From Escherichia coli (GTDB lineage Bacteria > Pseudomonadota > Gammaproteobacteria > Enterobacterales > Enterobacteriaceae), in the NCBI RefSeq assembly GCF_050920415.1, contig NZ_CP169309.1: 64,000 nucleotides of DNA; one strand, given 5' to 3'. The position numbers were made by a program, and so were the translations under genes. Shown here in pieces: positions 3,347-18,899 of the stretch (its first letter is position 1; each line of letters begins with the position of its first letter). Below the pieces are notes generated by a model. It searched no databases. It worked only from the letters and a program-made list of their open reading frames with translations, and had not been told where the DNA came from.

Positions 3347-6103
3347 TTACCCAAGAATTTTGCTGGCTTCGCGCGCCACATTATCCATCTCGTCCAGCAG
3401 TTCCAGAAGCTCTGGCTCCAAATCTTCTTCTTTAGTACCGCTGCGTAGCTGTTGTTCAATCAGTTGGCAGAGATTCTTCATACGCGGCACACCGCTATAG
3501 CCGCAACTGCCATGCAGTTTATGAATCAAATCAACCAGGCCTTCCGGGTTTTCTCCAACCAGCTGTTCCTCAACTTTGTTGCGAACTTCAGGCAGGAAAT
3601 CGAGTAACATTTGCAGCATATCGCGCGCTAAATCGGTTTTTCCTGCTGCCTGGCGTAGTGCCAGTTGCCAGTCGAGGGTCGCATTCGGGTTCACCACAAT
3701 TTCATTGACTTCGGGGGTCACGACGCGAGAGGAAATACCGCTGCCAGGCTTGTAGCGCAACAGCAAATTATGCAATCGTTCTTCTTCAATCGGTTTCGCC
3801 AGATAATCGCTCATCCCTGCGCCAAGCAGCTTCTCTTTTTGCCCGGCCATTGCATGCGCCGTTACCGCGATAACCGGCGTTTGTTGCTGATGTGGGAGCT
3901 GGTGGATGAGTTCGCAGGCCCGAATTCCGTCCATGTCCGGCATTTGAATATCCATTAAGATCAGATCGAACGGCATCTGTTTCGCCCGTTCAACGGCCTG
4001 ATGCCCGCTATCGCAAAGCTCTACATGTTGCACCATATCTTCCAGCAATGCGCCGATAAGTTTCAGGTTAGCGGGGTTGTCATCAACCGCCATGACTGTC
4101 ATTGCCAGCTTACTTTCATCGGTTACAGGCAAAAGCGTGTTTTGTTTGTGATGACAAAATTCCGTCAGGGCAGGGAACAGGCGCGTAGGTGTTAATGGTT
4201 TCAGCAGACACGCGCCGATACCATCTTGCTTAAGTTTTTCAGCATTGACTTGTGCATGGCAAGGAAGTGCCAGCATCAGAAAATCGGTCATCGATACCGC
4301 TTTCGCTAATCGCTCATGTTGCATTGTTAGCGGCTCGCGGAAGGTCACCGCAATGCCTAATAACATCATGTCGTAATGCGCGGGAGGCAGCGCGGAGAAC
4401 GTTGGGCTATAAACCACTTCCAGCGGCGTTTCACTTAAAATATCCAGCGTGCATTGCGCTGCTGCGGAGTTTGGTTCGACATAGGCCAGGCGCTTGCCGG
4501 CGAGGCACTGGGTGGATGGCCCTTCGATAATAATGTTCGGATTCAGATCGAGATTAATGTGGAACCAGAAAGTTGAACCGCGATTCGGCTGGCTATGGAA
4601 CGAAATATCGCCGCCCATTTCATTAACCAGTTTTTGTGTAATCACCAGCCCCAGCCCGGTGCCACCATGACGGCGGGAAATACTGGCATCAGCCTGTCGG
4701 AAGGCCTGGAATAAGCGCGATTGATCGCGTTCAGGAATACCAATGCCGGTATCCCGAATCTGCACTTCAATCTGCACTTTGGTATTACTCAGCGCACGTT
4801 TTTCTACCAGAATATCAATGTTGCCATTCTCGGTGAATTTAATTGCATTCCCTACCAGGTTAGTGATGATTTGCTGTAATCGCAGTGGGTCGCCAATTAC
4901 GTTATCGGGCACGTCGCTCTTAATATTGAGCGTCAGTTCCAGCCCTTTATCGTGAGAAGAATGTGCCAGCAGGGTAACGACTTCATCCAGCGTGCTGCGT
5001 AGTGGGAATGGAATACTTTCCAGAATCAGCTTACCTGCTTCCAGTTTCGAGAAGTCGAGAACATCATTAATAATTGCCAGCAAATTATTTGCCGAACGTT
5101 CAATCGTATTCAGGTGATCGCGCTGCGTTGGCGTTAATTCTGTTTTCAGCGTCAGGCGGGTAAAGCCAATAACACCATTCAGTGGTGTACGCAGCTCGTG
5201 TGACATATTTGCCAGAAACTCGGATTTAATACGCGCCGCTTCCTGGGCGCGCTTTTTCGCCAGATCCAACTCAACGTTCTGAATTTCCATCTGCTCCAGC
5301 GTTTCACGTAGATCGGACGTCGCCTGGTCGATATTGTGCTGCATCTCTTCGTGATAAGCTGCCAGCGACATTGCCATCGAGTTGATACCGTTTTTCAGCA
5401 TATCCAGCTCGCCGAGCATAAATCCTTCCACCCGGCTGTCGAGTTGCCCGCGACGGATGCGGTCGACGGTATTCACCATGTTGCGAATCGGACCGGTTAC
5501 ATCGCGCATTAAGCGCCAGCCAAAAATAAGCGCAATACCGATACAAAACAGCATCATCACGCTGGAAATAAAGATCTCTTTATATTGCTGCAAGCGAACC
5601 GATTTAAGATCCAGCTCAAGCGCAATATATCCCAACATATTTTGACTATTTTTGGCATCGCTACTGGGCGATTCGTCGGGGGAGTAACTCTCAGAAATAA
5701 TCGGCGTGCGGAGGATCATAATATCGCCGTCACGAGTGACAGTGAGCTGGCGAGGAAACGGCACGTTGCTGCCGAGCTGCATTGATGAGGGATCAAGATG
5801 AAAATTGGAGGTGACAAAGAGTCGGTTATTTTCATCATAAACCGAAATCGCGCGAACAATATCGGAATGGCGACGATGCAGTACGCTTATTAACTGACCG
5901 ATAGATTCGCGATTTTGCAGGCTCATGCCATATTCAGTAGAAACTGCAAGCGGCTCAATAATGCTGGCTCCGGCATCTTCCAGTTGACGCTGCAAGTCGT
6001 TATAGCGATGCACAACGAAAAAGATACTCAGCAATAAACCAATAAGGACGGTCGGTGCCAGGATCAGAATCATCATGCGTGCGCGCAGGCTGTAGTTGGT
6101 CAT
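3347..6103 (-). CDS. barA: hybrid sensor histidine kinase BarA (HAMP, HisKA/HATPase, receiver, Hpt)
   Basis: 918-aa ORF; H-box SHELRTPLN, receiver [14 protein letters not shown]-terminal Hpt region. Confidence 0.95.
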
Positions 6104-13931: not shown

Positions 13932-13940
13932 ATGGTTGAG

Positions 13941-14813
13941 TTACCAGCGACCGGAAGCACCGCCACCGCCAGAAGAACCGTCACCTCCGCTAAATCCGCC
14001 ACCACTTGAGCCGCCACCAGAACCGCCGCTGTCTGAATGATAACTTCTACCTGATGCTTTTTTCTGTGGGACACATAACCAGGTAAAGACCATAATGATG
14101 GTGAAAGTAAAAAAGAAGGAAAATACAGCAATGGAAAAAGTTTGATCGGAGAACAGGAATAAATCTATAAGATAGACTGTTGAAATACAAACACTGCTTT
14201 TAAATGCCCGACAAAAATTATTGCCTTGATGAAAAAACCAGAAAGGGAAGAACATCACTGCAAATACCCAAAAAATAGCAAAGTAGTAATGATCACTGGA
14301 AGACGCTGATTCACTTTCTGAAGGATTAGACGAATATTGGTGTTGTGAAGTGAGTTGGTTATTCAAAGCGATTATAGCTAACTCTCATCCCTTAGCTAAT
14401 TTTTGTTTTTTAAAGGCGGGTATCATGATGTTACGGATGATATTGCCAGCCAGAGCATCGGTTACCTTTTCTTCCAGCCCATAACCTACCTGAATGCGGA
14501 CAGTTCGATCCGACCAGGCAACAACGATCAGTATCCCATCATTACGTTTGGCATCTCCTAAACGCCAATTGTCAAAAACCCTTGTAGCATATTGTTCAAT
14601 AGAATCGCCTCCGGTGGATGGCACTATTAATACAGCGACCTGTGCCCGTGTTTTTTGTGTAATATCCTGCAGCTGTTGTGTCAGTGATTGTTGTTCAGAC
14701 GTGCTTAAGGTACCAGTAATATCGGTCACCTGTTGGCGCAGCTCCGGCACAGCAATTTGCTGGGCAAGCACAGGAAGGCACCATAAAGTGAGTAGAAAAA
14801 GGATTATACGCAT
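13941..14813 (-). pseudogene. YgcG-like TPM-domain membrane protein, copy 3, interrupted by an in-frame TGA
   Basis: ORFs 14385..14825 (signal peptide + TPM domain) and 13941..14366 (TM helices + Gly/Ser tail ...GGGGASGRW) are in the same frame, separated only by TGA at 14385..14387 and 6 sense codons; the downstream ORF begins with TTG, not ATG. Confidence 0.6.
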
Positions 14814-14818
14814 AACGA

Positions 14819-15966
14819 TCACCAACGGTCGGATGAACCGCCACCGCCAGAAGAACCGCCGCCACCGCGGAAAGAGTTTTTCGACGAAGAACGAGAATGA
14901 GCATTACGATTCCCCGTTTTCTTGTTGCTTTTATGCCCTGATCCCAGTTTAAGATTGCCAGTAAATTTGGCCACAATGATCAGCAGAACGATGCCAGCAA
15001 TGGTTATTGGGCCGATAAAATGATCAATTAGCCCAATAATTGTTGAGATGAACGCAATATCTTTATTACTGGCGAATACCAGGCACCATCCCACAACAAT
15101 TATCAGCAGCACGACAAACAATGAATTTCGTCCTGATTCACGAACCTGCGGAGCCTTCTTTTGTTTTTTCACTTTAGCGTTTTTATTTTGGGGGGCCAGC
15201 ATCATAGGAAATGTGCGGCATATATTAAAAACTACCGCGAGACGCTGCCAGCAGATTGCTGCGAAAAATAAACTAAAACAAACGACCGATACCCGCCGAA
15301 TGATGACATCGTCCTGAAAGGAGAAAAACCAGACCATAGGAGTAATCATCGATATCATCCATATGCCAGGCCCGGGACGGCTGGTAAATCGCCAGAGGAC
15401 AACGATGGCAACGATCATCAGTAATGTCCAGGCAAGACATGGCAGCGAGCGTTGCGGATTAGCAAACAGATGATTGGCTAAAGCATCCAAAGGGCTAAGA
15501 TTCGCTTTTATATAGGTAAACTGTGCGATGCCTTCAATTCCCTGCGTTAACCCGGAGAAGAGATTATTTTTTTGAATTCCGGTTGCATATGGTAATGAAC
15601 AATTTGCGCAGCTTGTTCCGGTGGCAGCATCTCTTCCAGTCCATGCCCAATCTTCATTGACGCCAGCCCTTCCGGCCAAACGACGAGAATTAAGATACCT
15701 TCGCCGTACCGCTTCTCTCCAACAGGTTTCCAGTGATATAACCCGTAGCTTTGCGAGGCTGCAAGTTTAATGTCTTTACCCCCAGTGGTCAGCGTTACCA
15801 ACACGGCAACCTGAAAGTGGTTTTGCTGCTCGAGAGTCTGTAATTGTTGAGTTAAAGCAGTTTGTTCTTCTGTCGTTAATGTCCCGGTTAAGTCAGTTAC
15901 TGAAGGCAATTGTTCAGCGAATGCCTGGAAACCACATAGCATCAGAAGTAAGAGAAAAATACGCAT
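14819..15966 (-). pseudogene. YgcG-like TPM-domain membrane protein, copy 2, frame-shifted at an A7 run
   Basis: ORF 15547..15966 (signal + TPM domain) and ORF 14819..15679 (5 TM helices + tail ...[15 protein letters not shown]) overlap in different frames; similarity to the intact paralog continues across the shift (LFSGLTQGIEGI vs LAGGLQKGISDI); switch point is the T7/A7 tract at 15567..15573. Confidence 0.6.
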
Positions 15967-15980
15967 TTCAATTCCTTTTG

Positions 15981-16919
15981 TTACCAGCGCCCGGAGGCGC
16001 CACCGCCGCCAGATGAACCGCCGCCGCCGCTGAAATTATCATTGTCAAAAGAGGATGAAGAGGAAGATGACGACGATGATGAAGAACGCCTGGAGGCCGA
16101 GTTACTTCTTTCGTAATGTGACGGTCGGTTGGCACTGCGCATCGAATCCCGAACCTTTTTGCCGAAGGGGGTAAAAGCGATGGCGACAGCCAGGAACGGT
16201 GTGGCGAAGCAGAGTAATGTTGCGAGTACTCCCCAGCTTCCGCTGAAACCTGCTATAGGTAAAACAAAGGCCAGTACAATAGCTGTGAAGCAAATTAGTC
16301 CCAGCGTTTTGACATATCCTCTGGCGGAAATAAAGGTCAGTACTATTGCCCAGACTAACAAAGCCCACCAACCGCTAAAGGGCAAAGGGTGATCGGTCGG
16401 TGTTATCGCTTCTAAATTATTCCCCGTCAGACGATTATCAATATCGCTTATTCCCTTTTGCAAGCCGCCAGCAAGGTCGCCATTTTTAAATGCCGGAATA
16501 ATACTGTTGCGAATAATTTTCCCGGACTGCGCATCCGTAATAACGCCTTCCAGTCCGTAACCGATTTCAATACGCACGGTATGATCCTGCCAGGCGACTA
16601 ACAGTAGAACGCCATCATCGCGGTCTTTATCTCCGGGTTTCCAGCTATCGAATACCCGCGTTGCGTACTGCTCGATGGTTTCATCGCCTGTGGTTTCAAC
16701 CACTAACACGACCAGTTGTGCGTGGCTTTTTTGCGTCAGCTCTTTAATCTGATTGGTCAACGTATTTACTTCATCGTTCGTCAATTTGCCGGTTAAGTCA
16801 TTCACATACCTGGGTGATTCAGGCACTGGAATTTGTATGGCAAACACAGATGAACAAAAGAAAGCCATAAGGAAGATAAAATTTCGCACAGGACTTCCTC
16901 GCTTAATGAGCATTAGCAT
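15981..16919 (-). CDS. YgcG-family TPM-domain membrane protein, intact copy (312 aa)
   Basis: signal peptide, TPM domain, 3 TM helices, poly-Ser tract, C-terminal [15 protein letters not shown]; probably the ygcG ortholog but which copy is orthologous cannot be decided from sequence alone. Confidence 0.8.
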   Translation of the reverse strand: MLMLIKRGSPVRNFIFLMAFFCSSVFAIQIPVPESPRYVNDLTGKLTNDEVNTLTNQIKELTQKSHAQLVVLVVETTGDETIEQYATRVFDSWKPGDKDRDDGVLLLVAWQDHTVRIEIGYGLEGVITDAQSGKIIRNSIIPAFKNGDLAGGLQKGISDIDNRLTGNNLEAITPTDHPLPFSGWWALLVWAIVLTFISARGYVKTLGLICFTAIVLAFVLPIAGFSGSWGVLATLLCFATPFLAVAIAFTPFGKKVRDSMRSANRPSHYERSNSASRRSSSSSSSSSSSSFDNDNFSGGGGSSGGGGASGRW

Positions 16920-17505
16920 TCTGGCTAAAATCTATTGTTGGGGTTTTACTCACAGCGGCGACATCATCCGGTAAATAATTTTTCTTCGGTGTGTAATCCA
17001 TGACTTTTGCGGTTAACACTGCGGGGAATTTGCGGATAGTGACATTATATTGTTCGATGGCTTTAATATATCTTCCTCGCGCAACGGCAATTCGATTTTC
17101 ACTTCCTTCGAGCTGTACCATCAAATTTTGATAGAGTTCCTGGGCCTTTAGCTCAGGGTAACGTTCACTAATTATCGTTAACTGACCGAGAGTGCGAGAC
17201 ACCTGCGCCTGGGCCTGTTGCCAGACTTGTAATTTTTGTTCATCCCCCGGAGTTTGCTGAAGATCGCTACTGGCGCGATTAGCCTGACTACGTGCCAATG
17301 TTACGGCTTCCAGTACCTCTTGTTCATGGCTGGAATAACCTTTAATACTAGCGACAAGATTAGGAATAAGATCGGCGCGACGTTGATATTGATTTAATAC
17401 CTCAGACCAGGAAGCGTTAACCTGCTCATCATAGGTTTGAATATCGTTATATCCACAGCCTGATAAATTGAAAATAAATATAATTACGATGAATATTCTG
17501 AGCAT
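16903..17505 (-). CDS. LemA-family lipoprotein
   Basis: 200-aa ORF with lipobox (FNLSGCGY) and LemA-like coiled region; its 3' end overlaps the start of the TPM gene (translational coupling). Confidence 0.8.
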   Translation of the reverse strand: MLRIFIVIIFIFNLSGCGYNDIQTYDEQVNASWSEVLNQYQRRADLIPNLVASIKGYSSHEQEVLEAVTLARSQANRASSDLQQTPGDEQKLQVWQQAQAQVSRTLGQLTIISERYPELKAQELYQNLMVQLEGSENRIAVARGRYIKAIEQYNVTIRKFPAVLTAKVMDYTPKKNYLPDDVAAVSKTPTIDFSQNANAH

Positions 17506-17677
17506 GGTTAAATTCCTTTTAATTAATTCCTTAAAACATAATACGCCACTTCATTTTATTCTTTATGATCTAATCCACTTTTTGCCTTAAACCTGCCTGT
17601 AACAGAATGTTAATAAGACATGATTGTTGTGGCAGGATCTGCAATAATTAACAATTATCCACTTCACAGAGAATGCT

Positions 17678-18687: not shown

Positions 18688-18899
18688 GAGTTCCCCACGT
18701 CAGCGGGGATAAACCGCTATACGAAGTTATTAGGTCCGAAGAGGAGTTGAGTTCCCCACGTCAGCGGGGATAAACCGTTTACGTGTTATCGCGCACCGGC
18801 GACGGTGTGGAGTTCCCCGCGCCAGCGGGGATAAACCGATTCAGCAAATAGCGAATTTCATAAATATGATGTGTTCCCCGCGCCAGCGGGGATAAACCA
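18688..18899 (+). CRISPR. type I-E CRISPR array, 4 repeats / 3 spacers (ygcE-queE array)
   Basis: 29-bp repeats at 18688, 18749, 18810, 18871 with 32-bp spacers (period 61); repeats 1-2 are the variant GAGTTCCCCaCGtCAGCGGGGATAAACCG, repeat 3 is canonical, repeat 4 is degenerate (GtG..., terminal a). Confidence 0.9.

Follow-up and report, generated by a model that had tools for sequence, protein, structure and literature searches.

Very probable inactivation of ygcG by a nonsense mutation specific to Escherichia cryptic clade I

Results

A LemA gene and three TPM-domain paralogs lie between eno and queE

The window, that is, the whole 64,000-nucleotide stretch of Escherichia coli DNA that was analysed, carries relA, mazG, pyrG and eno on its plus strand, and a cluster of four minus-strand genes lies between eno and queE. 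The cluster consists of a LemA family gene and three paralogous TPM-domain genes, referred to hereafter as copies 1, 2 and 3. Its features, including the parts into which copy 3 is divided by a stop codon, are listed here in coding order.

16903-17505, minus strand: LemA family gene, which opens the cluster of LemA and three TPM genes
15981-16919, minus strand: copy 1, an open 312-codon reading frame with TPM domain, membrane part and Gly-rich tail; Leu, encoded by TTG, lies opposite the stop of copy 3
14819-15966, minus strand: copy 2, carrying a frameshift in the window; its intact form has 382 codons
15567-15573, minus strand: run of seven A in coding sense (seven T on the plus strand), eight in intact alleles; site of the copy 2 frameshift
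13941-14813, minus strand: the whole ygcG-type gene (copy 3), 290 codons plus stop; pseudogene by internal stop, from PGAP, alignments and Pfam
14388-14813, minus strand: the part of copy 3 still translated, 142 codons, with the signal peptide and the TPM domain minus its last approximately nine Pfam-matched residues
14385-14387, minus strand: the in-frame TGA, at codon 143 of copy 3 (the ygcG ortholog), where intact orthologs have TTA (Leu)
14367-14384, minus strand: six sense codons (ELAIIA) separating the TGA from the earliest possible restart codon, in the ancestral frame; they align to LELAII or LELAIN in orthologs
13944-14366, minus strand: the stranded C-terminal part of copy 3, from TTG codon 150 to the end, with the linker, both hydrophobic segments (176-196 and 224-250) and the Gly-rich tail

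The GC content of the cluster (13941-17505) was 42–49%, as compared with 51–52% in the flanking eno, pyrG and queE genes, an AT-richness in keeping with a variable and possibly horizontally exchanged island. A scan of the locus for promoters and terminators returned no more sites than shuffled sequence did. Copy 1 is described by PGAP, in this and most genomes, as 'incomplete; partial in the middle of a contig; missing C-terminus' (16218-16889). In the window it is an uninterrupted 312-codon frame that includes a hydrophobic stretch, a poly-Ser run and the tail of the family, and its pseudogene call may be an artefact of the PGAP reference protein.

Copy 3 corresponds to ygcG of E. coli K-12

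From its N-terminus on, the copy 3 frame specifies a hydrophobic, signal-peptide-like segment and a TPM domain, then two stretches of strong hydrophobicity (residues 176-196 and 224-250), and finally a Gly-rich tail ending GGGGASGRW. When the stop was replaced by Leu, the protein matched the Pfam family TPM_phosphatase (PF04536) with E = 7.5e-39 over residues 29-151, covering model positions 1-123 of 125. The solved TPM domains 5anp, 7tbr and 2kw7 matched at E = 4e-25 to 1e-19. With NCBIfam there was a sub-threshold match to Psb32 only (38.8 bits against a cut-off of 160).

K-12 YgcG (b2778; WP_001268460.1, 'TPM domain-containing protein / YgcG family protein') is built in the same way, from a signal peptide, a TPM domain, hydrophobic segments and a C-terminal tail. 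Its gene lies directly after eno, facing queE and on the strand opposite to eno, as copy 3 does. Since both have 290 codons, occupy the same eno–queE position and are 77% identical over their full length without gaps, copy 3 is, as judged from these comparisons, the direct ortholog of ygcG. The two proteins are nearly identical from residue 60 on, whereas the first approximately 59 codons are strongly diverged: nucleotides 1-177 gave no blastn match, and identity thereafter was 91%. This suggests a mosaic or recombinant 5' end of ygcG. K-12 YgcG differs from copy 3 of the window in having Leu143 and an intact frame where the latter has TGA.

The closest relative with a solved structure is BA41 of Bizionia argentinensis (PDB 5anp; E = 4.4e-25, residues 4-186). 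It shares the layout of copy 3, with an N-terminal TPM domain, a hydrophobic segment and a Gly-rich tail ending GGGGASGGW, and it has Leu where copy 3 has the stop. Unlike copy 3, it is a distant flavobacterial homolog, intact and single-copy in the 5anp entry. A nucleotide-hydrolysing activity has reportedly been found for BA41. A literature search on the function of YgcG, LemA and TPM proteins returned nothing informative.

The top match of the homology search was P0031, a 459-residue protein from an ENA metagenome contig that resembles two ygcG copies fused head to tail, the junction being at the second hydrophobic segment; either a tandem duplication or a chimeric assembly could account for it.

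A single TGA interrupts an otherwise open frame

Straight translation of 13938-14825 gave a single internal stop in the 290 codons. By direct reading of the minus strand, this stop is codon 143, a TGA at 14385-14387, and codons 139-146 read TTA GCT AAG GGA TGA GAG TTA GCT. Six sense codons (GAG TTA GCT ATA ATC GCT, 14367-14384) follow it, and then TTG AAT AAC from 14366; the TTG (14364-14366) is what the listing of open reading frames had taken as the start of the downstream frame. The upstream (14385-14825) and downstream (13941-14366) open frames are thus parts of one common frame, and the report of the first-pass annotation that an in-frame TGA splits the third TPM copy was borne out, with coordinates and sequence as it had given them on the minus strand.

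Beyond the TGA, 147 further codons are open and span the membrane and Gly-rich part. A run of this length was free of stops in just 9 of 20,000 shuffles of the downstream 441 nucleotides, the remaining two frames of which contain 5 and 9 stops, and, past the stop, copy 3 can be aligned with intact orthologs and homologs at every residue. On these three grounds, the open downstream frame is more than chance.

The same annotation had placed the end of the TPM-domain frame at the stop. The frame does end there, but the domain is not complete before it: the Pfam match extends to residue 151, and the stop removes residues 143-151, so that no single translatable frame holds a complete TPM domain. 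The lost stretch includes the invariant Leu of the G-L motif.

The TGA replaces a Leu codon of intact orthologs

Every intact ortholog examined (SMS-3-5, 2014C-3075, LF82, ECOD1 and ERL06-2442) has TTA (Leu) at codon 143, and K-12 YgcG also has Leu at this position. In each of the five other proteins of the alignment the residue opposite the stop is Leu, and so it is in 5anp and 7tbr, the two solved TPM structures for which the alignment was inspected at this site, where it forms part of the motif G-G-L. Both paralogs in the window have Leu as well, the codon being TTG in copy 1, as against TTA in copy 2. The earlier proposal that the intact paralog has Leu at the stop, and that one base was changed from TTA to TGA, was therefore right as to the residue and the single change; the codon of copy 1, however, is TTG, and the TTA sense codon is that of the orthologs and of copy 2.

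Among the closest counterparts of the window allele are the intact alleles of phylogroup F/B2-type strains such as SMS-3-5 and LF82, in which the locus likewise contains four genes, LemA and three TPM copies. Copy 3 of SMS-3-5 (WP_024175812.1) is 98.1% identical in nucleotide sequence to that of the window, and copy 3 of LF82 (WP_024187973.1) 96.6%, in both cases over all 873 nucleotides and without insertions or deletions. These alleles have TTA at codon 143, and the window allele further differs in having the derived residues G69, V97, N128 and D278. As read from these alignments, the ancestral codon is the Leu codon TTA, and the lesion is one T-to-G change at the second codon position.

The TGA allele is shared by one tight lineage

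Among 5,426 complete RefSeq E. coli genomes, copy 3 was identical to that of the window in just two, MFDS1022581 and N96, the former of which matched the window across the whole 3.8-kb locus. The next closest allele among the complete genomes was 98.1% identical and intact. A 61-nucleotide probe centred on the stop gave exact matches in the same two genomes, out of 1,092 that have the stretch.

Ten carrier assemblies were compared in all: the window (matching NZ_CP169399.1), N96, AP025751, AP025747, E. coli 1.2741, M863, STEC_7v, GCA_000208485.2 and two SRA-derived assemblies. AP025751, AP025747, 1.2741, M863 and STEC_7v were traced through the exact 142-residue product together with downstream fragments of 104 or 105 residues predicted by gene finders, while GCA_000208485.2 and the two SRA assemblies were traced through variants of the truncated product, P14H and S43A. 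TGA is present at codon 143 in all ten. Their eno gene matches that of the window exactly in nine and with a single-base difference in the tenth. Among carriers, 0–5 SNPs were counted in 4 kb of flanking housekeeping sequence, as compared with roughly 1.2–1.5% divergence from other E. coli. Copy 3 itself varies at three sites among the ten (P14H, S43A and a synonymous change at G197).

At least two of the carrier assemblies come from strains regarded as Escherichia cryptic clade I. Membership of this clade is confirmed for strain 10290, and p7v, the plasmid of strain 7v, has been treated as a clade I plasmid (PMC10100065). The names 'Escherichia sp. 10290' and 'HH154_1D' are attached to the truncated protein. 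A literature search pairing M863 with cryptic clade I gave no result. Exact lookup of ten variants in a collection of 15 billion proteins (L, W, S, C, R or G at position 143 with an ATG start, and L, W, S or C with a GTG start) found no intact or revertant haplotype of the clade. The stop is real and inherited, apparently fixed in the sampled lineage, and absent elsewhere, which makes it a clean single-base marker of the sampled cryptic clade I lineage.

Public annotation already flags the gene: RefSeq PGAP calls it an 'internal stop' pseudogene in both complete genomes carrying the TGA, and annotates the orthologs in other strains as ordinary 290-residue 'TPM domain-containing protein' coding sequences. 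The stop is one base from the TTA of the five intact orthologs. Taken together, the ancestral TTA, the confinement to one tight lineage and the PGAP call agree with the original suggestion of a nonsense pseudogene arising by a one-base change, and we regard copy 3 as a ygcG gene very probably turned into a pseudogene by a nonsense mutation, TTA to TGA, that is specific to the cryptic clade I lineage of Escherichia. That suggestion also called the lesion recent, which holds with a qualification: the stop is shared by all ten carriers and predates the frameshift in copy 2, but is young enough for the gene to have escaped further damage.

The stop shows no sign of programmed recoding

The first-pass annotation had offered a read-through site as the other option. 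UGA is the leakiest stop codon in E. coli and shows basal leakage. Insertion of Trp by a near-cognate tRNA, whether by leaky or programmed read-through, would yield a functional L143W protein, leaving the gene down-tuned rather than dead, and the downstream frame is indeed intact in 10 of 10 carriers. None of those carriers has acquired a second disabling mutation in the 147 downstream codons. By itself this could point to a gene still in use, and no other observation could favour that, but with near-zero diversity among them fewer than one change is expected; the low diversity accounts for the intact frame, and its undamaged state is uninformative. Nor does the pattern of substitution help: of the three SNPs in copy 3, one is synonymous and downstream of the stop, too few for any inference on selection after the stop.

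The remaining evidence runs against read-through. The 81 nucleotides from the stop folded at −6.9 kcal/mol, as compared with a mean of −9.2 kcal/mol for 200 dinucleotide shuffles, 162 of which were at least as stable (z = +0.86); the native sequence thus folds no better than shuffles. An Rfam scan of 3.8 kb at E ≤ 1 gave no match at the stop, and nothing elsewhere except two chance matches to snoRNAs. The position is an invariant Leu in the family. Whereas conserved recoding sites are kept across orthologs, this stop is missing from every ortholog outside a single near-clonal lineage, represented by 2 of the 5,426 complete genomes. The read-through option did not hold up against the lack of 3' structure and of an Rfam match and the ancestral Leu, and we consider it highly improbable.

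Decoding of the TGA as selenocysteine through a SECIS element was also considered. Bacterial selenoprotein genes such as E. coli fdhF, like programmed read-through sites, have an in-frame UGA followed by an open frame, as is the case here. In contrast to them, copy 3 has no hairpin downstream, its stop occurs in one lineage, and the ancestral residue is Leu. The fold and the Rfam scan answer the question, raised at the outset, of a SECIS-like structure 3' of the TGA: there is none. Moreover, the ancestral and family-wide residue is not Cys, and the site is part of a structural stretch with which the TPM domain ends. The probability of selenocysteine decoding is negligible. The stop in copy 3 reveals no new recoding mechanism.

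Possible restart and retained function

If translation terminated at the TGA and reinitiated at TTG150, copy 3 would be a functional split gene, producing a soluble periplasmic TPM fragment and a separate membrane and Gly-rich part. An in-frame TTG is available as codon 150, 18 nucleotides past the stop, and the allele is apparently fixed in the sampled lineage. However, the 20 nucleotides before TTG150, GAGAGTTAGCTATAATCGCT, have no Shine-Dalgarno sequence at a usable distance, the sole purine-rich stretch (GAGAG) ending 15 nucleotides upstream. The next in-frame starts, GTG186 and ATG187, both lie in the first hydrophobic segment. The statement that the downstream segment lacks an ATG was thus not exact, as in-frame ATGs exist at codons 187 and 241, but both are within hydrophobic segments; its substance, that this part has no normal start, stands, since the first start is a TTG poorly spaced from purines and the first ATG falls inside transmembrane segment 1. 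In addition, the N-terminal product is missing the conserved final part of its domain, a natural two-gene arrangement was present in no ortholog or paralog examined, and the clade is also losing the sister paralog. A working split gene is extremely unlikely on this evidence. The first-pass annotation had looked to orthologs having the same stop and a well-initiated downstream gene as the pattern that would count against a pseudogene. Relatives in the same clade do share the stop, and the downstream gene was not found.

The TGA could also have been kept as useful, by freeing YgcG from its membrane tether as a periplasmic TPM fragment, whether or not traces of the full-length protein were still made through leakage or reinitiation at TTG150. 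Were this so, the TGA in cryptic clade I would represent an adaptive change of localisation and not simple loss; we give it very little likelihood. The truncated product is probably non-functional. The fragment of signal peptide and TPM domain might keep some activity as a soluble periplasmic protein.

A sequencing or assembly error over a true TTA codon, to which the single-base difference from orthologs could point, was rejected as vanishingly improbable: the same base is common to ten independent, separately accessioned assemblies (complete genomes, drafts and assemblies of SRA runs), and the change is a substitution, not a homopolymer indel.

Discussion

Probable inactivation of ygcG in the sampled lineage

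The nonsense-pseudogene reading leads to the following proposed course of events. In the ancestor of the sampled cryptic clade I strains, a T-to-G transversion (in coding sense) converted Leu143 from TTA to TGA. Translation would then end after Gly142, and the product would be a TPM fragment bearing a signal peptide but lacking everything from the G-L motif on, including the two hydrophobic segments and the Gly-rich tail. The 147 downstream codons would no longer be translated, and would persist as an open frame only because so young a lineage has had too little time for further changes. At most, basal leakiness of UGA would supply a trace of full-length protein.

Erosion of the LemA/TPM locus

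Copy 3 is not the only damaged gene of the cluster. Copy 2 in the window is frameshifted by loss of one base from a homopolymer (A8 to A7 in coding sense) and is called 'frameshifted' by PGAP. The T7 allele is present in 5 of the 10 TGA carriers and T8 in the other five; its recurrence in five TGA-carrying assemblies indicates that it is inherited and not a read error. As the TGA is found in all ten carriers and the frameshift in a subset, the TGA in copy 3 is the older of the two lesions. In AP025747, which has T8, copy 2 is interrupted by an insertion sequence with HTH_Tnp_1 and rve reading frames (4035-5248 of the AP025747 locus). This insertion is an independent second way of losing copy 2, which is therefore broken in six of the ten carriers, five by frameshift and one by insertion.

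K-12-type genomes are without LemA, copy 1 and copy 2, and their eno–queE interval holds just ygcG and yqcG, the latter of 46 codons (K-12 BW25113 region 1558-2584, compared with 13941-17505 of the window). The possibility that K-12 YqcG is a remnant of the LemA N-terminus was dropped, the local alignment score being 40 and only 'IIFIF' being shared. The eno–queE LemA/TPM locus has eroded separately in different Escherichia lineages, here by nonsense mutation, homopolymer frameshift and IS insertion, and in K-12-type strains by a large deletion. This suggests that the LemA/TPM locus is dispensable in many niches.

Divergence along the locus is uneven. The window and N96 differ at 3 sites in approximately 5 kb up to 15566, and then at approximately 55 sites across 15724-17514. 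These approximately 55 SNPs in 1.8 kb (about 3%) span the N-terminus of copy 2, copy 1 and LemA, and are seen in comparison with N96, AP025747 and one more strain that is otherwise near-identical. The jump looks like a recombination tract ending inside copy 2, and by this pattern of divergence the LemA/TPM locus is recombinationally mosaic.

A repeat array beyond queE

Between queE and a gene for an FGGY-type sugar kinase, at 18688-18838, the window contains a short array with a 61-bp period, 2.5 copies and 82% matches. Its unit contains GAGTTCCCCACGTCAGCGGGGATAAACCG, which resembles the E. coli type I-E CRISPR repeat. A CRISPR is annotated at the corresponding place in K-12, and the array is probably a degenerate remnant of a CRISPR array.
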